Shown one piece after another: positions 8,565-63,210 of a stretch of DNA of 64,000 nucleotides (position 1 is its first letter; every line of letters begins with the position of its first letter). The notes under the pieces were generated by a model. The model had not been told where the DNA came from and searched no databases. It saw nothing but the letters and a program-made list of their open reading frames with translations. The translations under genes were made by a program, and so were the position numbers. The DNA comes from Candidatus Magasanikiibacteriota bacterium (lineage in GTDB: Bacteria > Patescibacteriota > Patescibacteriia > Magasanikbacterales > UBA922), in contig JAKITS010000001.1 of NCBI GenBank assembly GCA_021648085.1, forward strand, positions 324,948 through 388,947. The letters run 5' to 3'.

Positions 8565-11500
8565 TTATATCTTCCCACAAATTAAGTCATTTTCAAAATC
8601 CTCCAAGCCTTTTAGTGTTTTTTCATATTTACTAATATCTGGAAAATCTAAGTTTCTTATCTTTTTATCCACAGCAACAATTAGTTTTTTCAATCTTTCC
8701 ACATCTTCAGAAGTTATGTCATAAGGAAGGCAGTGAATTTCATCTAATTTTGTAGGATTCAGAAATTCCAAATACCCACGGTTTACAGTATATTTTGAAT
8801 AATCTCGTGAGAATTCTACCAAAAGTTTATAAAAAATAATCTGTCTTTTATAACCATGGAGTTGTACTTTTTTGTCTGGCAAACTTTCCTTCCAGCTCAA
8901 TTTATAACTTCCTGTTTTAAAATCATAAACCTCCATTTCTCTTGTTTCTTCATTTGGAACTATTTTATCAATTTTTCCTGTTATTTGTACATTTTCCACA
9001 AAAACTTGTTGCATTCGAAAATTTGTTTCTATCCAGCTTGTCGCAGAAATTCTATCTTGGTATTTATTCAAATATATTTTCCAAACCTCATTTCCCTTTT
9101 TTAAATACTTTTCAAAAATATTTTCTCTCATGTTTTCTCTTTCCAGGTGTCCTTTGAAGTATTTCTGAACTTCTTCAATATTCGGTTTAATTTCATTTTT
9201 AGAAATATGGTTATGTATACTCTCTACCGTCGCGTGCATTGCAACCCCATAAGAAAGAAAAGGGGTTTTTGAAGTTGGAAATCTCAGTAAGTTTTGTTCA
9301 AAAAACTCGTGCGGTCCGCCACGCATTACATTTAGAAAATTGTTCAGATGCGTGACACTTAAAATATATTTATCTAAAATTGGTTTTAATACAGATTTTT
9401 CATCCAAAGATAAAGGGCTAAACGACGGCAAACTTGTTTTTTCCAAAGAATTCACAGTATCCAAAATATTAGATTTTATTTCTTTTGCTTCAATTTTATA
9501 CTCCACACCTTCAAAAATAGAAGTTTCCAAAAATGGTACTCGGAGTGAATCTCTACCATTTGTCTTCTTTTTATAACTTGTCACATACAAATTACTTTTT
9601 GCGCGAGTAATTGCTACAAAAAATAAACGCAAATAATCATCTATTGTATCTCCCGCAGGATCAATCGATAAATTTTTTGGGAAAGCAATCATATCTCTGG
9701 ATTGTGATTTTGCCCAAACTTCATTTTGACAATTCAATACAAAAACTGTATCAAACTCCAACCCTTTTGCTTTGTGTGCTGTCAAAAGCGTGATAGCGCT
9801 TACTCCACCAATATATGGACTTGTGTCTGTTATCGCTAAATTGTGCATCTCGTATATATCCACACAGGAAACCAAATCAAAAAGTTTTGGGGCTGAAATA
9901 TCAGAAGTATACGATCGCACAGTGCTTACAAAAGTGTTCAAACTAGATAAAAATTGTATATATTCTGATGGATTTTTATTATATTTATCTTTGTGAAAAT
10001 AAAATCGACGAAATGAAGATGTAAATTTATTTTTAATTTCATCTGCTGGACCAATCAATTCATCTAACAAACTTCCCATTGGTTCTATGTGAGCTCGAGA
10101 AGCAAGATCCAAAAACCAATTTGCTATTTTTTGTAATTCTTTATTTTCACTTTCCAGCATTACATCTATCCACCTTCCTCTTGTGTCGGTCTTTTGTTTT
10201 TTGTATGCTTCAATTGAAAGTTTCCAAATAGTAGACCTATCCAAACCCCAAAATGGAAAAGATAAAATTGTCGACAAAAAATTCTGAGAATAATAAATAG
10301 AATCTTTTGCGAGAGAAGAGACAAGTCTAGCCATACAAATAATCTGATTTATATGAACTTCTTCCAACACATTTCTCTGACGCTCGTATTGAATTGGGAT
10401 TTGCTTTGCAAACAAAAATGGTGCAATTTCTTGAAGTTGTCTGTGATTTCTTGCAATCACAGAAATATTATCCAAACTCACCCCATTTTCAATTTTATAT
10501 TTTATTTCATTGGCAATATATTCGTATTCGTGAACAGCTGTATCAAAAGTATGTGCTGTAATTACACCTTCTTTTATATCTGGATTTGCAGATTCCAATT
10601 TTTTTTCAACCTCCTCCAACCTATCTACCAATCTATCATCCCCTTGAGAAATTACACGGTGTGCAAAATCTACAATTGCAGGAGTGGAGCGATAATTTTT
10701 TACCAAAGTTATCAATTTTGTTTCAGGATACTGCTCTCTAAATTGTAATATATTATTTATCTCTGCTCCTTGAAATTTATATATAGCCTGATCATCATCC
10801 CCAACAACCATTACATTCGGTTTACCTTCGTTTACTGGATTTTCTGTCAGCATATGAATAATTCTCATTTGTGCTTCGTTTGTGTCCTGAAACTCATCGA
10901 CAAGAATATATTGATATTTTTCTTGAAGTTCTGCCAAAAGCCCGGGTTTTTTTAATAAAACTCGAATCAAATCCAAAATCATATCATCAAAATCTACCAA
11001 CCCAATTTTTGCCATTGCTTTTTGATATTTTTCATAAACCAATCCCAAAGATATATTTCTATCCAATTGATATGCATCTTTTAAGCGCTTTTTTTTAGTT
11101 TCCTTATCTCTACCTATCCAATTATCCTTCCATTTTGTGATTGGTTTTGTACTATTTTCTTCTATTGCCTGCTCGTACGCATTCAAAAGTGAACGCAATA
11201 AAATATCTTTATAATCCAAAAGGCTAATATGTTCTATTGGCAATTTTGGTAAATCTATTTGTTTAATTTGAGAAATTAAAGTTGGTATTTGCTCTTTTAT
11301 TTTTTTGGAAACTCGTGGCTCAAAAAAAGGGATTAAAATTTCTTCTATTTTTGCAAAACAATCTCCATTTGATTTTACAATTTTTTGATATTCTTCTGGT
11401 GTAATTCCAGCTTTTTTCAATTTACTAATTTTATTTTTTATACTATTTAAATATACAAAAGTTCCATTACGCTTTGTACTAAATGAATCTGAAAATAATA

Positions 11501-11888
11501 AAGATTCAAGAATTTTTCCCAAAACTTCTATCTGCTTTACATTTTCAGCAGATTTCATTTGTTGTGCCTCATAAAACTCCTCTCGAAATTTATAAGTGAC
11601 ATCTAATGCAAAACTATGAAATGTGTGGATTGAAACTTTATATGCAGAAATCCCAATAAAACCGCTCAAGCGATCTTTCATATTTTTTGATGCTGCATCT
11701 GTGAAAGTTAGGCAAAGTATATTTTCTGGATTTACATCAGCTTGCTTCAATATATTTGCCACACGCATACCGAGCAACTCTGTCTTTCCACTTCCTGGTC
11801 CAGCTATTACCATTACTGGTCCGTCTATTGTGTCCACAGCTTGCCTTTGTTCATTATTTAATTTTTTATACCTATCATTAAACTTCAT
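8565..11888 (-). CDS. UvrD/PcrA-family ATP-dependent DNA helicase with C-terminal PD-(D/E)xK-like nuclease domain
   Basis: Walker A AGPGSGKTELL at the N-terminus and UvrD-type motifs (VDEFQDTN, VGDDDQAIY). 1107 aa. C-terminal EVYDFKTGSYK resembles a RecB/Cas4-type nuclease motif. Confidence 0.85.
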   Translation of the reverse strand: MKFNDRYKKLNNEQRQAVDTIDGPVMVIAGPGSGKTELLGMRVANILKQADVNPENILCLTFTDAASKNMKDRLSGFIGISAYKVSIHTFHSFALDVTYKFREEFYEAQQMKSAENVKQIEVLGKILESLLFSDSFSTKRNGTFVYLNSIKNKISKLKKAGITPEEYQKIVKSNGDCFAKIEEILIPFFEPRVSKKIKEQIPTLISQIKQIDLPKLPIEHISLLDYKDILLRSLLNAYEQAIEENSTKPITKWKDNWIGRDKETKKKRLKDAYQLDRNISLGLVYEKYQKAMAKIGLVDFDDMILDLIRVLLKKPGLLAELQEKYQYILVDEFQDTNEAQMRIIHMLTENPVNEGKPNVMVVGDDDQAIYKFQGAEINNILQFREQYPETKLITLVKNYRSTPAIVDFAHRVISQGDDRLVDRLEEVEKKLESANPDIKEGVITAHTFDTAVHEYEYIANEIKYKIENGVSLDNISVIARNHRQLQEIAPFLFAKQIPIQYERQRNVLEEVHINQIICMARLVSSLAKDSIYYSQNFLSTILSFPFWGLDRSTIWKLSIEAYKKQKTDTRGRWIDVMLESENKELQKIANWFLDLASRAHIEPMGSLLDELIGPADEIKNKFTSSFRRFYFHKDKYNKNPSEYIQFLSSLNTFVSTVRSYTSDISAPKLFDLVSCVDIYEMHNLAITDTSPYIGGVSAITLLTAHKAKGLEFDTVFVLNCQNEVWAKSQSRDMIAFPKNLSIDPAGDTIDDYLRLFFVAITRAKSNLYVTSYKKKTNGRDSLRVPFLETSIFEGVEYKIEAKEIKSNILDTVNSLEKTSLPSFSPLSLDEKSVLKPILDKYILSVTHLNNFLNVMRGGPHEFFEQNLLRFPTSKTPFLSYGVAMHATVESIHNHISKNEIKPNIEEVQKYFKGHLERENMRENIFEKYLKKGNEVWKIYLNKYQDRISATSWIETNFRMQQVFVENVQITGKIDKIVPNEETREMEVYDFKTGSYKLSWKESLPDKKVQLHGYKRQIIFYKLLVEFSRDYSKYTVNRGYLEFLNPTKLDEIHCLPYDITSEDVERLKKLIVAVDKKIRNLDFPDISKYEKTLKGLEDFENDLICGKI

Positions 11889-11899
11889 ATTTTTTTATT

Positions 11900-12736
11900 T
11901 TATATTGTCAGCAATAGCAAAGCAATTCCAAAAAGTCCTAATCCTACAAATTTTATAGCCACATGCTTTTCCTTGAAATATACATTTCCAAAAATAATAG
12001 TCCACAAAATTCTTCCAGATCTTTTGATAGAAATTATAATAGACGGTGGTGCATAAAGGTAAGCAAAACTTTCCAAAACCGTACCAACCCCACTAGAAAC
12101 TGATTGCGAAAGAATTATTTTTTTCTTTAAAAATTTGATAGGATTTTCTCCTGCTATAAATTTGGCAGTCACCATAAAATATATTGCCAAAATACCAGTA
12201 AAAATCATTTGTTCGGCTTCCACACTATTGAAATTTGTAATATTATATTTGAATAAACTTATAGTTCCAACTGCTAAAACAGAAGTTAGTAAAACATACT
12301 TCACACCTCTCTTTCCTATCCCATGATTTAATGTTAGAAAAGCCAAGGCAAATAAAATTACAACAATACCTATAATATTTTGAAAACTAAGTGCATAACC
12401 AACAAAATAATCTACAATTAATAATAAGGGAATAGTAAGACTACTCAAAAATCCAAAAGTGCTACGAGATGCTAGCACAACACCTTTTAATCCAAAATGA
12501 ATTAGGAAAATCTCCAAAATTAGACGCAAACCAAAAGTAGGAATAGAAGCTGGATCAAATAATAATTCCTGTCTAACAAAAATTACCAAAATTAAAAAGA
12601 ATACGAAACTTGCCAACAAACTAAGCGATGCAAAAGTATAAGGACTTTCTTTTTTTTGTTCAATCTCGTGTTTTCCAATTGATACAGAAATTTCATGAAA
12701 AAATTCTGCAATCATTACTAATAAAGCTCCAAACAT
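11900..12736 (-). CDS. polytopic membrane protein (about 10 TM, DMT/EamA-like; unconfirmed)
   Basis: 278-aa ORF dominated by hydrophobic helices. Confidence 0.5.
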   Translation of the reverse strand: MFGALLVMIAEFFHEISVSIGKHEIEQKKESPYTFASLSLLASFVFFLILVIFVRQELLFDPASIPTFGLRLILEIFLIHFGLKGVVLASRSTFGFLSSLTIPLLLIVDYFVGYALSFQNIIGIVVILFALAFLTLNHGIGKRGVKYVLLTSVLAVGTISLFKYNITNFNSVEAEQMIFTGILAIYFMVTAKFIAGENPIKFLKKKIILSQSVSSGVGTVLESFAYLYAPPSIIISIKRSGRILWTIIFGNVYFKEKHVAIKFVGLGLFGIALLLLTI

Positions 12737-39516: not shown

Positions 39517-39589
39517 ATTTTAGTTGTTTAATATAATTTAAATTAGTTCATTTTAGACATAAAATCAAGGAATTCAAAAAGTTAGAACT

Positions 39590-39637
39590 TTCGAATCCAT
39601 GCCGAGAGTGAAGCAGTTCACTCTCTCCTCTCTTCAC
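39590..39637. repeat. partial copy of the tRNA-linked repeat (TTCGAATCCatGCC plus hairpin GAGAGTGAA-gcag-TTCACTCTC plus CTCTCTTCAC)
   Basis: Shares TTCGAATCC-hairpin-CTCTC..TTCAC architecture with the units at 41583-41665 and 60791-61024. Confidence 0.5.
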
Positions 39638-39708
39638 AAATAAGAACTGTTTCCGAACTTTTTTAACCAAATTAAAATAAAACGTAATTATTTAGTTGTT
39701 GCAAAATA

Positions 39709-40929
39709 TTATCGCAAACAATAAGCAAACCACGTTTTTTGCCTATTTTCCAAAACCCTAGGATATTCAAAAGAAGATCCAATGGAATCACCACAAGCCG
39801 CTGGGGTTCCTGCTTCTTCAATGTAATTCGCTATTGGTGCAACAAATTTTTTATTTCTTAATAAATTGTCAATATCATTTTTATCTGTCGTTATTTTTAC
39901 TGACATATCAGATATATCAAAAGTAACGAGACTATCTCCTATCATCTGAACATATTTTTCAGTATCAATATTGTATAAGTTTCCCATTGTGTAGTAAGTA
40001 TCATAATAATCTCCTTTTTTAACAGGATTACTTGGATATAAGGTTAGTTTAGGCTCTGTATTTCCTTTTGGCCATATATCGCCTGTTGTCTTTAAGAAGT
40101 AAGACGAAGTATTTTGTTGATCATCATAAACGGAACGCAAATAATCACTTGCCGAAATATTTTGATCTAGTATATATGTACGATTTAATGTGCCAATCTT
40201 GTTAAAATAGATCTTGATAGAATCACTACTTACTGGGAATGAGATTTGATGTATACCATCAGGTCTCATTACTGTATTATTTTTCATTACACCATAATTA
40301 TCAAAAACCATCTGATATACTTCATTACCTGTAACTATTCTGTATTCTGTTTGATATTTATTAGATTTTACATAACTTTTTGGTGATAACAGGGTGCCAT
40401 CGTTAGCATTATACAATTGAATAACAGCTTCTCCGTCTACACCATATTCATTTATAGCCAAAACATCATTATCTACATATTGAATTCCTCCCACAATAGA
40501 ATCAATTAGCTTGCTATCAGTTTTATCTTTTAGATCTATTTTATTTATTACTCCTACTTGAGTTTTTTTAACAGAATCATATTTACTATTTATATAATAA
40601 ATAGTATCAGACGACTTATCAAAACTAATAGAAGATACATTAAAAAAATCTATTTTAGGTATATTTAAAATGACCTCTTTTCCTTCTGAGGTTAAGCCAA
40701 TAAATTCTCCAGTATTTTTATCAGAATACACGACAATTGGAGACAATGACTCTAAGTATGTGTTAAATTGCGTTTCTTTTTCTCGATATTCATTATCTAT
40801 ATATATTTTAGATGTAGACGTATCGTTGTTATATTGTAAGTACACAAAAATACCTGTTAAAACAATCAAGCTTGCTAATACGATTGAAATTATTTTAGTT
40901 TTTTTGTTGATAAAATTATCTTTATTCAT
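39709..40929 (-). CDS. hypothetical secreted or membrane-anchored protein (406 aa, beta-rich)
   Basis: N-terminal TM. Tyr/Asn/Ser-rich repetitive beta-strand-like composition. Confidence 0.5.
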   Translation of the reverse strand: MNKDNFINKKTKIISIVLASLIVLTGIFVYLQYNNDTSTSKIYIDNEYREKETQFNTYLESLSPIVVYSDKNTGEFIGLTSEGKEVILNIPKIDFFNVSSISFDKSSDTIYYINSKYDSVKKTQVGVINKIDLKDKTDSKLIDSIVGGIQYVDNDVLAINEYGVDGEAVIQLYNANDGTLLSPKSYVKSNKYQTEYRIVTGNEVYQMVFDNYGVMKNNTVMRPDGIHQISFPVSSDSIKIYFNKIGTLNRTYILDQNISASDYLRSVYDDQQNTSSYFLKTTGDIWPKGNTEPKLTLYPSNPVKKGDYYDTYYTMGNLYNIDTEKYVQMIGDSLVTFDISDMSVKITTDKNDIDNLLRNKKFVAPIANYIEEAGTPAACGDSIGSSFEYPRVLENRQKTWFAYCLR

Positions 40930-41030
40930 AAAGTTCTATTAAAGAACATACGCTAAAACTATTTTTTTGTCAATTAAAAACCTTACTTTTAGATCTTTTA
41001 TTAAAAATCCTTGTAAAAAAAATACTTTGT

Positions 41031-41369
41031 ATGATAATACCTTTCTTTTTTCATACAAATTTCTATCTACGACATTATTCAAACCCTTTCATAATAATAG
41101 ACGTTGAGCAAAATCTTGTTGATAAATTTATTGATAATATACATCCCGATCTCGATGCACTCCCCTACTGTGTAATGCTTAATCTGGATAAGTTAACTAG
41201 TCCTATTAATTCTATAGAAAAAACATTATTTTTAAGACGAATAACAATAACTGACAAAAAGGAAGAGGATATTTATAAATTAGACTTTAGAACATTTTTT
41301 AATATTCGATACAAAAAAGATGTCTTAACACCAAAATTTGATACTTCAAAAATAAATAAACGTTGTTAA
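41031..41369 (+). CDS. hypothetical protein (112 aa)
   Basis: ORF only. No motif. Confidence 0.35.
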   Translation: MIIPFFFHTNFYLRHYSNPFIIIDVEQNLVDKFIDNIHPDLDALPYCVMLNLDKLTSPINSIEKTLFLRRITITDKKEEDIYKLDFRTFFNIRYKKDVLTPKFDTSKINKRC

Positions 41370-41392
41370 AAAATGTTGTTTTCTTCATAAAA

Positions 41393-41448
41393 GTTCGAAT
41401 CCCGTTCTTCCTCACATTTTTTTATTTGTTCGGAGGCAAAAATTCGGT
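41393..41448. repeat. tRNA 3'-end remnants (GTTCGAATCCCGTTCTTCCTCA on plus strand; TTGTTCGGAGGCAAAAATTCGG, a degenerate copy of the tRNA-Gln 3' end)
   Basis: T-loop-like TTCGAAT plus acceptor-like strings without 5' halves. TTGTTCGGAGGCA recurs at 41699-41711 adjoining the intact tRNA-Gln. Confidence 0.55.
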
Positions 41449-41582
41449 CACAGATAAATTTATTGACTTAAATTTTCCGCGACCCCGTCTCACGGTCTTC
41501 ACCTTACCTCTTCGGGTAAACTCAGACATCGCTCCGACTTTCAAATCCCTGTCGAGAGTGAAGCAAGGGCATGTTGATTCCT

Positions 41583-41665
41583 TTCGCTCCGACTCAAGCC
41601 GGGGTGTTGCGTGCTCTCACACCCTTCGAATCCCTGCCGTGACACAAGACTTTGTGTCACTCTCC
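41583..41665. repeat. tRNA-linked structured repeat core (Gln-locus copy)
   Basis: Over 85% identical to the 60791-61024 units. Hairpins GGGTGT/ACACCC and GTGACACAAG/CTTTGTGTCAC carry compensatory changes relative to GGGTGC/GCACCC and CAGGCAAAG/TTTTGCCTG. Confidence 0.6.
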
Positions 41666-41702
41666 AAACAAAAACAAACCTTTTCAGGTTTGTTTTTGTT
41701 TG
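41666..41702. terminator. hairpin AAACAAAAACAAACC-ttttca-GGTTTGTTTTTGTTT abutting the tRNA-Gln 3' end
   Basis: 15-bp stem identical to the one at 34794-34832. Confidence 0.6.
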
Positions 41703-41774
41703 TTCGGAGGCAGGGATTCGAACCCCGATAGTCAGGATCAAAACCTGAAGTCCTACCATTAGACGACCTCCGAA
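41703..41774 (-). tRNA. tRNA-Gln(UUG)
   Basis: TCGGAGG-TC-GTCT-AATGGTA-GGAC-T-TCAGG-TTTTGAT-CCTGA-CTATC-GGGGTTCGAATCCCTG-CCTCCGA-A. Anticodon loop UUUUGAU. Confidence 0.85.
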
Positions 41775-47849: not shown

Positions 47850-48416
47850 TTATTTCCTCAAACTAAGTTCATAATTTACTTGCTCCAACTTTCTCACAGC
47901 ATTTTTTGCCTGATCTAATTTATTACGAAGATAACTAGTCAAATTAAATTCTATTAACTCTCCAACTACTTCCTGAGCAGTCTCAACACATCGCTCAACC
48001 ATTTCAAAATCTCTTTTAGTCGCAAACTTCACAGCATACCGCAAAAGCTCTCCTGGTACATCACAAAGACCTGCAATGTAAACATCGTCTGGAACATCCA
48101 ATTGAATTCTTCCAAAATCTACTCCATTTATAAAATCAAAGAATAAAGTAGCTTCTACAAATTCCTCCATTCCAGCTTTATACGAACCCTGTCCTTCCAA
48201 AACATTTATATCAAACTTTTTCTGCAAATTTAACATTATATTTTCTGATTCTTTCATTTTATCTTCTGCGTCTTCTGCATCATCTCGATGAAGTGAGAAA
48301 ATAGCCCGCTTTGCCAAATGCAGTGCATCTCCAGATTGTTTAATTATCTCTCTTCTCTCTGTATCTTTCTTTGTCATTCTCTCTTTTTTCTCCTCTATAA
48401 AATTCTTATCTATCAT
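47850..48416 (-). CDS. hypothetical helical protein (two-repeat, PhoU/DUF47-like?)
   Basis: 188 aa. Overlaps the stop of the upstream P-type ATPase by about 10 nt, so is likely co-transcribed with it. Confidence 0.5.
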   Translation of the reverse strand: MIDKNFIEEKKERMTKKDTERREIIKQSGDALHLAKRAIFSLHRDDAEDAEDKMKESENIMLNLQKKFDINVLEGQGSYKAGMEEFVEATLFFDFINGVDFGRIQLDVPDDVYIAGLCDVPGELLRYAVKFATKRDFEMVERCVETAQEVVGELIEFNLTSYLRNKLDQAKNAVRKLEQVNYELSLRK

Positions 48417-59168: not shown

Positions 59169-59951
59169 TTAATTTACTAACTCAGAAATCTTTAACTCTT
59201 TAGCATTTTTCTTTAAAAAATCAGTTGCAAAATTATCTGCATAATTTTCATATGAAGAATTTCTGTATGCAAGTTCTTGTGCATTTAAAAGATCTTGTAG
59301 TGTTTTTATATTGCTAGTCTTTACTATTCTATAAACATCCGGATTAGCTAATAAAAATTCTTCTAAATTAGTAAATTTAGCCATTTCTTCTCGCAAATCA
59401 ACCGGATCAAATCCTGGAACAGGTAATGTATATAAATTTGCATTATAGTGTGACGACCATTCTTCTGCAGCATCTGCACCTTCAAAATCTGGGTTGGTTT
59501 CATAATTTTTTATATAATCCGTAGCATGCCCCAACTCATGAGCAATAATAAATTGCCTAAGTAAGTTTGGCGTCATATTTTCAAAGCTAATTCCCAACAT
59601 ATCAGCAACTTCTTTGGCAGAAGATTCACGAACATCTTTTAATTTTTGCAAGTGTTCTTTATTTTCAGAAACAATAAATATTGTAGGAATAAACACATTT
59701 TCGCCAACCTGAACTCTATGAAAAAAACCGTCCGTATTTGGCTCGTCTTCTGGGGAAATAGTTACAACCTCAACATGAGATAAGAAATCATTTTGTTCTA
59801 ACATAAGCTTAAGCATTGCATCCATAGATTTATCTATTTCTATACCTTCTCTTGATATTAATTCATCCAACCGTACACCTTTATTTTTTCTCTCGTCTTC
59901 TTTCTCTAAGTTATTTTGATAAAAAGAAGTAGATTGTTCAGAGTTTTCCAT
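59169..59951 (-). CDS. HExxH zinc-metallopeptidase-like protein (ImmA/IrrE M78-like)
   Basis: FIIAHELGHATDYI. Otherwise unassigned. Confidence 0.45.
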   Translation of the reverse strand: MENSEQSTSFYQNNLEKEDERKNKGVRLDELISREGIEIDKSMDAMLKLMLEQNDFLSHVEVVTISPEDEPNTDGFFHRVQVGENVFIPTIFIVSENKEHLQKLKDVRESSAKEVADMLGISFENMTPNLLRQFIIAHELGHATDYIKNYETNPDFEGADAAEEWSSHYNANLYTLPVPGFDPVDLREEMAKFTNLEEFLLANPDVYRIVKTSNIKTLQDLLNAQELAYRNSSYENYADNFATDFLKKNAKELKISELVN

Positions 59952-59978
59952 TGGTTTTTAATATTTAATGATAAAAAT

Positions 59979-60491
59979 TTAATTATTTCTAAAAAAAGTT
60001 TGTTCAAAAAAAAATTTAACTTTTTCTTTTAATTCATCATCTGATATTTTTTTACTTTCATTCTTCATTGCAACAATAATTGCAAGATTATAAAGCCCAA
60101 AATCTTTTGGTTCAAACCCTTTCCAGTTATAAAAACTACAATCACCAAATAACGATTTTAAAATACTTTTATAGTTTTCTTTTGATAAAACAGAAGGTAA
60201 ATAATTATTTTTTTCTAAAAAATAAACAGTACTAACAACAGAAAGTCTTTTATTTCCATTAGAGAAATAGTGAGTATTTATATTTATAAACAAAAATGAA
60301 GCTTTATCCGTTATGTTTGGATAATAAATAGTTTTAGACCTATCAATTAAAGCAAAATATTCGTCAATTGAATCTCTTTGACTATCATAATCTGGCACCT
60401 CTTCTTTATGTTCATATTCAAAACCTCTAATAATATTAATGATATTGATTAAATCTTCCGGTAAAATATATTCAATATTATTTTGTATCAT
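59979..60491 (-). CDS. Fic/Doc-family protein (Doc-type motif HYFSNGNKR)
   Basis: The HxFx(D/N)GNKR variant characteristic of Doc toxins. 170 aa. Confidence 0.7.
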   Translation of the reverse strand: MIQNNIEYILPEDLINIINIIRGFEYEHKEEVPDYDSQRDSIDEYFALIDRSKTIYYPNITDKASFLFININTHYFSNGNKRLSVVSTVYFLEKNNYLPSVLSKENYKSILKSLFGDCSFYNWKGFEPKDFGLYNLAIIVAMKNESKKISDDELKEKVKFFFEQTFFRNN

Positions 60492-60499
60492 AAATAAAT

Positions 60500-60673
60500 T
60501 TATGTATTTCCAAGCCTTTTAACAACAATGCTATAATTTCTTTTTACAGATTTTGCTGTAGTTTTGCTTTTGTAAGAACCGATAATTTGCCCCTTCTTTC
60601 CAGAAGAAGTGGTTCTTTGTCTAATTGCATAATATTTTTTTGTAGAGGTATTATGAATTCTTTTTGTAGCCAT
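60500..60673 (-). CDS. possible 57-aa basic protein immediately upstream of doc (MATKRIHNTSTKKYYAIRQRTTSSGKKGQIIGSYKSKTTAKSVKRNYSIVVKRLGNT)
   Basis: Complete ORF below the track size cutoff. Its stop is 8 nt before the Doc start, the antitoxin position in phd-doc operons. Confidence 0.35.
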   Translation of the reverse strand: MATKRIHNTSTKKYYAIRQRTTSSGKKGQIIGSYKSKTTAKSVKRNYSIVVKRLGNT

Positions 60674-60790
60674 ACTATTTTATTTATATTTATTTTATCA
60701 TTTTTATTTTTAAAAAACAAGCTTTATTTTTAAATCAAAATCAAAAAAGTTTTTTGATTTTAAACTATTCTAAAAAAGTGGCAGGACTTT

Positions 60791-61024
60791 TTTCGCTCCG
60801 ACTCAAGCCGGGGTGCTACGCGCTCTCGCACCCTTCGAATCCCGACACAGGCAAAGACTTTTGCCTGCTCTCTCTCCTTCACTTCGTTGCGGAAAGGGCG
60901 GGATTCCTTTCGCTCCGACTCAAGCCGGGGTGCTACGCGCTCTCGCACCCTTCGAATCCCGACACAGGCAAAGACTTTTGCCTGCTCTCTCTCCTTCACT
61001 TCGTTGCGGAAAGGGCGGGATTCG
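60791..61024. repeat. two perfect tandem 117-bp direct repeats downstream of tRNA-Ser, each ending with a copy of the tRNA 3'-terminal ~18 nt
   Basis: TTTCGCTCCG at 60791 and again at 60908. TGCGGAAAGGGCGGGATTC at 60888-60906 and 61005-61023 (the latter is the real tRNA 3' end). Overlapping ORFs on both strands are spurious. Confidence 0.8.
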
Positions 61025-61093
61025 AACCCACGGTACGATTTCTCGTACACATGCTTTCCAAGCATGCGCATTAAACCACTCTGCCACCTTTCC
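61007..61093 (-). tRNA. tRNA-Ser(GGA)
   Basis: GGAAAGG-TG-GCAGAGTGGTTTAATGC-GCATGC-TTGGAAA-GCATG- long variable arm TGTACGAGAAATCGTACC -GTGGGTTCGAATCCCGC-CCTTTCC-G. Confidence 0.85.
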
Positions 61094-61102
61094 AATTTTA
61101 TT

Positions 61103-61873
61103 TTATGTACTTTTTTTATTTATTTTATAAAATAAAAATATTCCACTTATCAAAAGAATAATAGCAAAATATTGAGCTGGAGTCAATCCTAAATACCTAA
61201 CATCTGCATGTGCTATATCTACTGCCCTAAAAAAATCCAACACAAAACGCATAAAACCATATTCTGTGAGTAAAATAATTGTAAACCAACCGTCGCCAAA
61301 TTTTACTTTTTTTCTAAGAATCAAAAAAATAATAGCCACAGGAATCAACCACAAAATTTCTAGCAATGCCATTTCTAGTCTTGCTCCGTCTGGCGTATTT
61401 ATAGCAAGAAAAAAGTCTACTTTTTGACCCAAATGATCGTGAATTGCAAAACACCCAAGCCTGCCAACAATCCAACCAAAAATTGCAGAAAAACTTAGTA
61501 AATCTGCAATCTTCAAATATATTTCTTTATTCCAACTTCTACTTGAACCGTAAATAAAAAATCCCAAAACTGCACCGAATAAACCACCAAAAGAAGAAAA
61601 TCCACCGTTCCAAACTTTGAATATTTCAAAAGGATTGCTGAAAAAGAAAGAAGGCTCATAAAATGCAATGTGAAAAATTCTAGCAAATAAAAAACCTAAA
61701 ACAATAATTAACAACATCAAATTGGTCAAACTCTCTGAATCCATTCCAACTTCTTTTGATTTTTTAAGTAAGATTATAAAAGAAGTCAAAAAACCAAGTG
61801 CAACAAAGAAACCCCAAGCATAAATTGTCAAAGGACCTATATTAAAACTTAGATATTGAAACCACGGAATCAT
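61103..61873 (-). CDS. lgt: prolipoprotein diacylglyceryl transferase
   Basis: SIGPL..YAWG N-terminus, FxxWNGGxSxxGG, GRLGCF. 7 TM. Confidence 0.85.
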
Positions 61874-61878
61874 AAAAA

Positions 61879-63210
61879 CTATTTCTCTTTTCTAGACTTT
61901 TTTATAATTTCAACAATTTCTTCTTCATTATCAACAATATGAAACAAATCCAAATCTTCACTATTAATTGTTTTAAATTGCTCTACCAAAACTTTTCTTA
62001 TAAACTCTTTCAAAGGTCCCCAAAACTCTGTGTCATACAAAATAATTGGAAGTTTTGCCATCTTTCCAGTCTGTACCAAAGCCAAAACCTCAAAAAGCTG
62101 ATGAAGTGTACCTAGTCTTCCTGGGAAAAATACAAAACCTTTTGAAGGTGCTGTCACCAACAATTTCCTTACAAATGGAAAACTCGTCACCATTGAACGG
62201 GTCACATATTCATTTAAAGGTGCTTTGTCATTCAATTTCATTGCAATTCCAATGGAATCTCCTCCGGCTTCTTTTACACCCTTATTTACAGCTTCTGCCG
62301 CCCCAATTCCCCCACCTGTCACAACTGCAAAACCTTCTTCTGCCAATTTTGTTCCTAGGTTGTTTGCAACATTGTAATATCTATTATCTTTTTTTATACT
62401 TTTTGAACCAAGCACTGTCACATCTTCTACCAAACCAGTCAAAAATTCAAAACCTTCTACAAGCTCTGCCATAATTCTAAAAATCTTCCAATCAATTTTT
62501 TCATCGCACACAAAATTCATTGGCGCTAATTCACAAATATTTATATCTTCTACATCTTTTACTATTTTCTCCACCTCTTCAACACTATCCACAATTCTCC
62601 ATCTTTGAATTTCTTCTTTGTGTTCGCATACCAATTTTTTACAACTTTCATTTAAAAAATTTATAATTGGATTCCAAAATTCACTTCCAACCAAAATTAA
62701 AGGTGAACGATACATCTTTCCCAAATCCATCATATCTACAATTTCAAAGAATTCATCCATTGTTCCATAACCACCAGGAAAAAATACAAATGCGTGAGCT
62801 GGAGCAGTAAGCATTACTTTTCTAGTGAAAAAATAATGAAATGCTGTGGACTGTTTTACATAAGGATTTATCCTTTGTTCAAAAGGAAGTTGGATATTTA
62901 GACCAACACTTTCACCTCCAGCTTCTGTTGCACCCCTATTTCCTGCTTCCATAATTCCTGGGCCTCCACCAGTCACAGTTGTGATACCATGTTTTGCCAA
63001 AACAGACCCAACCTCTTGCGCCAAATTGTAATATTTACTATTTTCCGGAAGACGCGCAGAACCCATTATTGTGACGACTTTTTTAAATTGAGACAAAAAC
63101 TGATAACCATCTACAAATTCAGACATTATACGAAAAATTCGCCAAGTATCACGAAATTCTCCTGTTTCATTTAATGCAGAAAATTCTTGCTTTTTTATTT
63201 CTTTTTTCAT
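61879..63210 (-). CDS. tandem-duplicated LOG-family (TIGR00730) protein
   Basis: Two complete LOG modules, each with GGGxGxMEA/AEA and the PGGxGTxxE motif (FPGGYGTMDE and FPGRLGTLHQ). Confidence 0.8.
   Translation of the reverse strand: MKKEIKKQEFSALNETGEFRDTWRIFRIMSEFVDGYQFLSQFKKVVTIMGSARLPENSKYYNLAQEVGSVLAKHGITTVTGGGPGIMEAGNRGATEAGGESVGLNIQLPFEQRINPYVKQSTAFHYFFTRKVMLTAPAHAFVFFPGGYGTMDEFFEIVDMMDLGKMYRSPLILVGSEFWNPIINFLNESCKKLVCEHKEEIQRWRIVDSVEEVEKIVKDVEDINICELAPMNFVCDEKIDWKIFRIMAELVEGFEFLTGLVEDVTVLGSKSIKKDNRYYNVANNLGTKLAEEGFAVVTGGGIGAAEAVNKGVKEAGGDSIGIAMKLNDKAPLNEYVTRSMVTSFPFVRKLLVTAPSKGFVFFPGRLGTLHQLFEVLALVQTGKMAKLPIILYDTEFWGPLKEFIRKVLVEQFKTINSEDLDLFHIVDNEEEIVEIIKKSRKEK

Follow-up and report, generated by a model that had tools for sequence, protein, structure and literature searches.

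A tRNA-anchored tandem 117-bp repeat of a Patescibacteria genome as a candidate tRNA-mimicking RNA module

Introduction

Two perfect 117-bp repeats stand in tandem behind a tRNA-Ser(GGA) gene of a Candidatus Magasanikiibacteriota bacterium. What are these repeats, and why does each of them repeat the end of the tRNA gene? In this study, the array was analyzed together with a window of 64,000 nt (GenBank assembly GCA_021648085.1, contig JAKITS010000001.1, positions 324,948–388,947 of the forward strand); all positions given below are those of the window. A sequence-only reading had proposed a miniature non-autonomous integrative element or the scars of repeated integration and excision. The analysis favored, with moderate confidence, that each 117-bp repeat is a tRNA-mimicking RNA module of about 100 nt, which is co-transcribed with the tRNA and accretes at tRNA 3' ends. 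This module family was not found described and is known so far only from the candidate phyla radiation (CPR)/Patescibacteria. CPR bacteria make up a large, poorly understood share of bacterial diversity and have reduced genomes.

Array behind tRNA-Ser(GGA)

The host gene tRNA-Ser(GGA) was located at 61007–61093 on the minus strand by ARAGORN and by the Rfam tRNA model (60.2 bits). Since the gene is on the minus strand, the array lies downstream of its 3' end. CCA is not encoded; the 3' end reads ..CCTTTCCG|CAAC. Tandem Repeats Finder (TRF) reported a single array at 60791–61023, with a period of 117, 2.0 copies, 233 nt, 100% matches, 0 indels, and a score of 466. The perfect tandem repeat of the sequence-only reading was thereby confirmed, and the unit sequence matched the one quoted there. 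The G+C content was 58% in the array, 32% in the window, and 24–31% in the array flanks.

The segment shared by the tRNA and the repeat is the 17-mer GAATCCCGCCCTTTCCG, which extends from T-loop G57 to the discriminator G73 of tRNA-Ser(GGA) (61007–61023, minus strand). It occurs exactly twice in the window, once as the tRNA's own end and once at 60890–60906, and no further copy was found in the window even with three mismatches allowed (0.05 expected). A decayed look-alike, AAGTCCTGCCACTTTTTT, follows the second repeat at about 60771–60788, with approximately 11 of 19 positions matching by eye. The tRNA 3' end had been described as present in triplicate; two of the copies are exact, and the third is this decayed one. 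The order on the minus strand is tRNA(..17), X (100 nt), 17, X (99 nt), and decayed 17, where X is the unit without its 17-mer. The description of the units as tiny and tandem was also correct, with 117 bp per unit and about 100 nt without the 17-mer.

Unit 1 is complete (60890–61006, minus strand, 117 nt) and was matched by the covariance model of the family, R1, with 108.6 bits (E = 7e-24) and all 112 model positions aligned. Unit 2 (60771–60889, minus strand), found by TRF, scored 87.4 bits with R1, with mismatches only in its 3' strand; its body (60791–60889) is 100% identical to that of unit 1. The internal junction base G60907 differs from both of its flank equivalents, C61024 and A60790, so a naive tandem duplication fails to reproduce the junction. 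G60907 belongs to the motif GGAATCCC, which was invariant across the 13 sequences of alignment A1, an invariance qualified by the retrieval of 11 of these 13 with a pattern that already contained GAATCCC.

A promoter-like site (TTGACT-17-TATTAT with a TG extension, 10/12) was located by consensus scan only at 61158–61186 on the minus strand, about 65 nt upstream of tRNA-Ser(GGA), and could drive transcription of the tRNA and the units. In the list of open reading frames (ORFs), frames of 105–111 aa span the tRNA and both units (60760–61095, minus strand; 60754–61074, plus strand). Gene callers may mis-annotate such arrays as repeat proteins, for example through the 111-aa frame over the tRNA and both units.

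Secondary structure of the unit

A model of five helices, P1–P5, was derived from 13 diverse units (alignment A1). The elements follow each other on the tRNA strand as a purine-rich spacer, the P1 5' strand, the P2 hairpin, the P3 5' strand, and P4/P5. In unit 1 these are the spacer CAACGAAGTGAA (60995–61006), the P1 5' strand GGAGAGA (60988–60994), the P2 hairpin (60964–60985), the P3 5' strand CGGGATTC (60954–60961), P4 (60945–60950 with 60928–60933), and P5 (60922–60924 with 60907–60909). The unit's own 17-mer (60890–60906) provides the 3' strands of P3 and P1.

The fold resembles the top half of a tRNA. In P1, the last 7 nt of the copied 17-mer (tRNA positions 66–72) pair with the 5' strand of the unit, and in P3 the T-stem 3' strand and T-loop residues 57–60 pair with GGGAU(UC). 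The P2 hairpin stands where a tRNA has its D, anticodon, and variable arms; inside P3, a compact three-way junction of P4 and P5 takes the place of the T-loop. Because the copied 17 nt are the paired strand of P1 and P3, they are a working part of the fold and not a by-product. The sequence-only reading was thus right that the units reproduce the tRNA 3' end; the reproduced part runs from the T-loop to the discriminator.

The window unit pairs 6 of the 7 P1 positions (GGAGAGA with CCTTTCC), including two G-U pairs, and has one A-C mismatch. At three metagenomic loci (L018, L040, and L030), the P1 5' strand is the tRNA's own acceptor 5' strand (7/7), and in L018 the boundary between P1 and P3 falls exactly at tRNA positions 65/66, the boundary between acceptor and T-stem. 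The P3 pair 41:106 covaries with the T-stem of the host tRNA. The marks of a tRNA-like structure were therefore found in the units: an acceptor-type helix of about 7 bp that ends in the discriminator, coaxial with a T-stem-type helix, and covariation.

Three subtypes were distinguished: a long one with a P5 insert (the window type), a medium one (Met-type), and a short one without P2. The minimum free energy fold of unit 1 contained P1–P4, and its fifth hairpin used CGGC/GUCG instead of P5. This pairing of the single-sequence folds was rejected in favor of CUY/RAG, which is common to the long and short subtypes and covaries. The 3' strand of unit 2 has decayed to AAGTCCTGCCACTTTTTT, so its own P1 and P3 are unable to close; the upstream 17-mer is still pairable with the unit 2 body.

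The fold was supported by several comparisons. In A1, 91.6% of the paired cells could pair, compared with 77% in shuffles and at most 61% in slid registers. Both sides had changed in 17 pairs, and the covariation score was 0.431 vs. 0.158, which was reached by 0 of 500 shuffles. RNAalifold recovered P2–P5 and four P1 pairs without a given structure. Among 50 distinct R1 matches, whose alignment was fitted to R1 and so leans toward the structure, double changes were present in 26 of 34 pairs, and P2, P4, and P5 were about 98% paired. Between the window unit and the unit of a sister species (L002), the identity is 81%, with 21 differences; 7 compensatory pairs account for 14 of these, and a further 3 track the tRNA acceptor strand. 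Across the units, P2 contains 13 G-U pairs and 0 A-C pairs, so the folding strand is the tRNA-sense strand. A conserved sense-strand fold that rebuilds the acceptor/T helix of the host tRNA was thus strongly supported.

Distribution of the family

A degenerate pattern made from three unit types returned 34 metagenomic loci, including about 8 chance matches in GC-rich coding DNA. Over the window and these 34 loci, R1 gave 65 matches with E ≤ 1. Pattern scan and covariance model together yielded 76 matches at E ≤ 1, approximately 60 of them confident, at about 35 metagenomic loci. The loci that could be placed belong to Magasanikbacteria and Moranbacteria. The hosts were tRNA-Ser (GGA, CGA, and GCT), tRNA-Met, tRNA-Tyr, tRNA-Gln, and, more weakly, tRNA-Asp. 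The units were always on the tRNA strand, and each carried the 3' end of its own tRNA at all of these hosts. No unit was found at tRNA-Lys in the window. Units also lie between tRNA-Tyr and tRNA-Thr within a tRNA operon; they must therefore be transcribed there and cannot be transcription terminators.

The Lgt protein encoded next to the array places the organism in Candidatus Magasanikbacteria, within the CPR; a look-up of its exact sequence gave no record. The lgt-tRNA-Ser locus was compared between relatives. Five independent assemblies of the sister species (L001–L005, Lgt 73% identical) contain lgt-tRNA-Ser(GGA), two X-type units, and a truncated unit. Each X-type unit there closes with the tRNA end of the sister species, GAATCCCGCTCTCACCG, which differs from that of the window. 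A second serine tRNA gene, tRNA-Ser(CGA), comes next, and behind it stands a shorter unit of 82 nt that closes with the end of this second tRNA, GAATCCCACCCTCTCCG. L001, L003, and L004 have a single copy of the 82-nt unit and L002 has two; L005 has at least 2.5, as its contig stops within the array. Two more distant relatives (L006 and L007, Lgt 54–59% identical) contain lgt-tRNA-Ser(GGA) without a unit; their downstream flanks differ, and an exact empty site was not seen there. The presence of units in the sister species, their absence from L006 and L007, and the varying copies indicate an element that is conserved between species yet accessory, with an unstable copy number. A strict trailer+GGGAT pattern run against GTDB genomes returned only the sister species. 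In L017 (1–1270, minus strand), which is syntenic to the window, about 750 bp with one ORF lie between tRNA-Ser(GGA) and a decayed copy of the 17-mer, and the next unit carries the 3' end of another tRNA, Ser(CGA).

In Moranbacteria, the order tRNA-Ile, tRNA-Met, array, and ABC transporter is kept down to 63% transporter identity, with 0, 1, or 3 canonical units between tRNA-Met and a terminal unit. This distinct terminal unit has an extra hairpin before the T-stem strand (..CGCAGGAGAGAGATTCCCTGGGAGGGAATTTCTCCCACCCCCGC) and ends the arrays of L015, L041, L045, L043, L046, L024, and L021; in L027, an inserted hairpin separates the T-stem strand from the acceptor strand instead. In L043 (1216–1491), L044 (492–767), and L046 (356–625), a small ORF of 89–91 aa with a GIY-YIG domain separates the tRNA-Met array from the ABC transporter; none was found there in L024 or L045.

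Solitary high-scoring units without an adjacent tRNA keep their own 17-mer, and the upstream copy is decayed (L018, L010, and L017). Arrays coincide with contig ends or runs of N in L005, L009, L012, L016, L021, L032, and L043 (N at 767–865). As the arrays break short-read assemblies, the reported copy numbers are lower bounds.

A separate observation concerns L033, where about 1 kb (approximately 11100–12100) separates tRNA-Thr(TGT) from a tRNA-Tyr-like 3' half (e.g., ..AGATATAGTCCG..). The sequence points to a tRNA-Tyr gene with an intron, possibly one of group I; no Rfam match was obtained for the region at the gathering threshold.

Other family members in the window

A second member lies at 41560–41674 on the minus strand (R1 72.2 bits, E = 3e-15; alignment A3), after tRNA-Gln(TTG) (41702–41773, minus strand; ARAGORN and Rfam). 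The core hardly differs from that of the Ser unit. The P3 5' strand, GGCAGGGATTC, is retargeted: it complements GAATCCCTGCC, the 3' end of tRNA-Gln. The unit has a disrupted 3' strand of its own, and behind it comes a partial unit (about 41520–41559).

An AT-decayed remnant of a unit was found at 39560–39639 on the minus strand (R1 21.4 bits, E = 0.0035); P2 and the P3 5' strand are recognizable, and P4/P5 are lost. It sits 70 nt past the stop codon of an ORF of 406 aa (39709–40929) without a Pfam match. The arrangement in the window is therefore Gln unit, 406-aa ORF, and remnant.

Gene cargo and neighboring genes

Genes were found between family members at some loci. L026 (635–12050) contains tRNA-Gln(CTG) with a diverged unit, an 11-kb island, and an intact unit. 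The island encodes the type I restriction-modification genes hsdM/S/R, DUF4145, and an unknown protein of 1192 aa, and it is bounded by a 28-nt direct repeat (the tRNA-Gln 3' end plus CTTAGTAATTT). In L034 (3290–4440), a single NYN-domain gene lies between direct repeats of about 190 nt that start inside the unit. The repeat consists of the 3' two-thirds of the unit, its 17-mer, and about 95 nt downstream; the left copy has a different 5' half and looks like a recombination product. The units mark places of DNA accretion, and accretion at tRNA 3' ends is real.

Three ORFs follow the array in the window (59169–60673, minus strand): a basic one of 57 aa, a Fic/DOC-like one of 170 aa, and one of 260 aa with an HELGH motif and no Pfam match. 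The 170-aa ORF contains the motif HYFSNGNKRLS, and its Fic/DOC match (E = 9e-4, 20.4 bits) is below the Pfam cutoff of 24. The Doc-toxin module named by the sequence-only reading is plausible at this place, and with a sub-threshold match it was weakly supported. The sister species has an EcoRI-type methylase and RhuM at the position downstream of the array.

An all-vs-all BLAST of the flanking ORFs showed no enzyme shared among the unit-flanking ORFs; the recurrent neighbors were syntenic housekeeping genes only (lgt, LOG, gatA, and an ABC transporter). Elsewhere in the window, a protein with a Translin-family domain is encoded at 47850–48416 on the minus strand (E = 1.6e-20). The Translin family is uncommon in bacteria.

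Searches for recombinases and known families

Domains of integrases, recombinases, transposases, and reverse transcriptases were absent from the 39 ORFs scanned with Pfam across the 64-kb window, and none of the window ORFs of at least 150 aa with a Pfam match encodes such an enzyme. A Pfam scan of neighbor ORFs sampled in L011, L016, L024, L026, L033, and L034 found none of these enzymes either. The sequence-only reading had suggested a search for a cognate tyrosine or serine integrase elsewhere in the assembly; none turned up in either set, which leaves room for one elsewhere in the genome.

The window units (60000–62000, E ≤ 10) matched no family of Rfam 15. Two partly overlapping matches were below gathering, sX4 (26 bits vs. 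a gathering threshold of 70, mostly on the tRNA) and sRNA162 (E = 1.6), and were read as chance. At the gathering threshold, Rfam found only tRNAs in the whole window and 12 loci.

Several identities were rejected. The units are not a canonical tRNA, tRNA-Sec, or allo-tRNA, for they have no anticodon arm and were not called by ARAGORN or Rfam in the window and in 34 oriented extracts. A known self-cleaving ribozyme was rejected on the lack of an Rfam match and on the junction J3/4, GAUGAGAAG, which is not a hammerhead core and varies (UUCGAAG in other units). A protein-coding repeat was rejected because the frames are not conserved, the unit lengths are 117, 113, and 82 nt, and the ORFs across the array overlap the tRNA; the window unit lacks the ATG-initiated ORF of the L002 units.

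No match that would indicate a phage or plasmid origin was obtained by blastn in 50,697 phage and 72,556 plasmid records, and pattern scans of IMG/VR returned no unit. Inspection of A1 showed no conserved integron boxes (RYYYAAC/GTTRRRY) at the unit borders, and the units did not qualify as integron or attC sites. A direct repeat of the tRNA 3' end that bounds an insert, as expected of an integrative element, was found in the window and at every host tRNA of the related loci.

Possible origin and mechanism

The following mechanism is proposed for the tRNA-mimicking module. The modules would be transcribed from the tRNA promoter as one precursor with the tRNA. RNase P and RNase Z would release each module, a CCA tail would be added, and stable tRNA-like RNAs would result. 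Release and CCA-tailing are probable because each module shows an acceptor/T-type coaxial helix that ends in the tRNA discriminator. On the DNA level, the repeated 17-mers and the unit bodies would recombine, and arrays would expand, contract, and homogenize in this way. Recombination between the repeats would explain the perfect identity of the two window copies; it may also let new units, and sometimes genes, accrete beside the tRNA.

Several observations weigh against this reading. The P1 5' strand GGAGAGA is the same in the window and L002 units despite differing tRNA acceptor strands, which makes the P1 helices imperfect. This shared strand suggests that it is recombination of the DNA, rather than selection on the RNA alone, that keeps the 17-mer identical to the host tRNA. 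P1 is weak in Met-type units (4–5 bp). Between tRNA-Gln and its unit in the window there are 27 nt, mostly a terminator-like hairpin (AAACAAAAACAAACC..GGTTTGTTTTTGTTT), and a terminator-like hairpin also lies between tRNA and unit in L026. Unit 2 without a usable 3' strand and the decayed remnants mean that many of the copies are not required, as would be expected of a selfish repeat. Several of the "conserved" motifs were already set by the search pattern, which is an ascertainment bias; in addition, the 50-sequence alignment leans toward the structure. Folded sense-strand single-stranded DNA (ssDNA) would be expected to give the same covariation signature, and the RNA product of the units is one that we infer.

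A more far-reaching form of the tRNA-mimic module, self-propagation, appears doubtful. The module would choose its target by complementarity to a tRNA 3' end, with the P1/P3 5' strands as guides that are retargeted among Ser, Gln, Met, and Tyr. It would copy itself beside that tRNA, sometimes with cargo, either as RNA (e.g., processed, CCA-tailed, and reverse-transcribed or recombined back) or as attC-like folded ssDNA, and would need no local integrase.

The miniature non-autonomous integrative elements of the sequence-only reading were judged unlikely. According to this explanation, the X+17 insert is derived from a tiny circle and was put into the tRNA 3' end by a tyrosine or serine integrase encoded elsewhere, and the tandem accretion corresponds to that of cis-mobilizable elements (CIMEs) and ssrA islands. 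The direct repeats start in the T-loop, a classic sublocation of integrase crossover; heterogeneous arrays have identical 17-mers (L024 and L022); presence and absence vary at orthologous sites; and cargo is bracketed by tRNA/unit and unit (L026 with its 28-nt direct repeats, and the ORF insertion of L017). However, no integrase, recombinase, or transposase was found in the approximately 40 window ORFs or in the L026 island, and there were no matches in IMG/VR, phage, or plasmid records. It is implausible that a circle of 117 bp serves as a substrate for recombination, an att arm would have no need of GC-rich helices with compensatory changes, and units occur inside tRNA operons. Accretion, the accessory state, and the polymorphic copy number thus agree with an integrative element, but the structure is unaccounted for and the ORFs scanned contained no integrase. 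The plain att-repeat or excision-scar version does not hold, as the 100 nt between the repeats are a conserved covarying structure and the 17-mer is a strand of two helices.

A recombination site of folded ssDNA, similar to attC or the CTX attP, is a less probable alternative still. The P1+P3 duplex would be exchanged with the tRNA gene, and the units would be cassette-end sites for gene capture. The structure is indeed more conserved than the sequence, the fold is strand-specific, the order of gene and then unit recurs in L034, L026, L017, and the window (39560–41674), and the neighboring cargo is of the defense/toxin type. Against this, no IntI-like or other recombinase was found nearby and no GTTRRRY/RYYYAAC boxes were conserved by inspection; most arrays are gene-free, and the repeats of about 190 nt in L034 look like the outcome of homologous rather than site-specific exchange.

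Plain, functionless duplication in tandem of the tRNA 3' end and its trailer, recent and by slippage or unequal crossover, is improbable. It agrees with the 100% identity of the two copies and the unstable copy number, and short direct repeats with hairpins favor slippage. The junction base G60907, however, is underivable from either flank, and the same architecture, with covariation, occurs in the sister species (Lgt 73%), at other tRNAs, and in another CPR lineage. Plain duplication is contradicted as a complete explanation; it is likely as the mechanism of copy-number change.

An assembly artefact, i.e., a falsely expanded or collapsed repeat, is very improbable: related contigs often end in arrays or carry N gaps, so copy numbers in assemblies are uncertain, but two X units are present in five independent assemblies of the sister species, the family occurs in many unrelated assemblies, and the array of 233 bp is within the span of a read pair. 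Conservation across species and across tRNAs makes both plain duplication and assembly error insufficient.

The tRNA-mimicking module thus remained the favored reading. Expression of the modules would mean that CPR bacteria make a whole class of tRNA-like RNA with the acceptor helix of a specific tRNA and no anticodon. Such RNAs would be possible substrates or decoys for RNase P, RNase Z, the CCA-adding enzyme, EF-Tu, aminoacyl-tRNA synthetases, and tRNA-targeting toxins. If the modules are mobile, they would be the smallest tRNA-targeting elements so far, with the target set by base-pairing built into a structured module, and would bear on the accretion of genomic islands at tRNA genes. The covariance model R1 is a direct means of annotating the arrays.

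Comparison with known systems

No description of such arrays was found in full-text literature searches. The units combine features of integrative-element duplications and of tRNA-like RNAs, a combination that was not found described.

Integrative elements partially duplicate the 3' ends of tRNA and tmRNA (transfer-messenger RNA) genes, with tandem accretion and CIMEs, according to Williams (2002) as cited in PMC9897764; see also PMC5704250 and the ssrA islands of Dehalococcoides (PMC3146451). The units are similar to these duplications in that direct repeats of the tRNA 3' part start in the T-loop, stand in tandem behind one intact gene, vary between strains, and have defense/toxin genes near them. 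They differ in that the inserts are only 65–100 nt without the 17-mer, gene-free, GC-rich, and covarying, and in that the repeat takes part in the base-pairing. In contrast to those elements, the units came with no integrase in the ORFs scanned, and they occur inside tRNA operons.

Integron attC sites and the attP of phage CTX act as folded ssDNA. They share with the units a length of 60–140 nt, a structure conserved over sequence, a strand-specific fold, a head-to-tail arrangement, and sometimes single genes between the sites. The units, by contrast, lack an IntI/Xer context and R'/R'' core boxes, and their arrays are tRNA-anchored and mostly gene-free.

Allo-tRNAs with 8/4 or 9/3 acceptor/T configurations have been reported (PMC5389517). 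Like them, the units show an unusual geometry of the acceptor/T branch and were found by metagenome mining. Allo-tRNAs keep the cloverleaf and the anticodon, whereas the units have neither and were called neither by ARAGORN nor by the Rfam tRNA model.

The stable RNAs in the tRNA cluster of phage T4 and mascRNA are further tRNA-like comparators. Bacterial non-coding RNAs with tRNA-like domains include tmRNA (PMC3985003) and the Y RNAs/YrlA (PMC4201824). In the units, as in these domains, an acceptor-type helix is stacked on a T-stem-type helix, and the anticodon half is replaced by another structure. Those RNAs are known to be co-transcribed with tRNA or processed by tRNA enzymes, which would apply by inference to the units. 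The units differ from them in matching no Rfam model, in having a three-way junction in place of the T-loop, in copying strands from a neighboring tRNA of any identity, and in forming variable tandem arrays.

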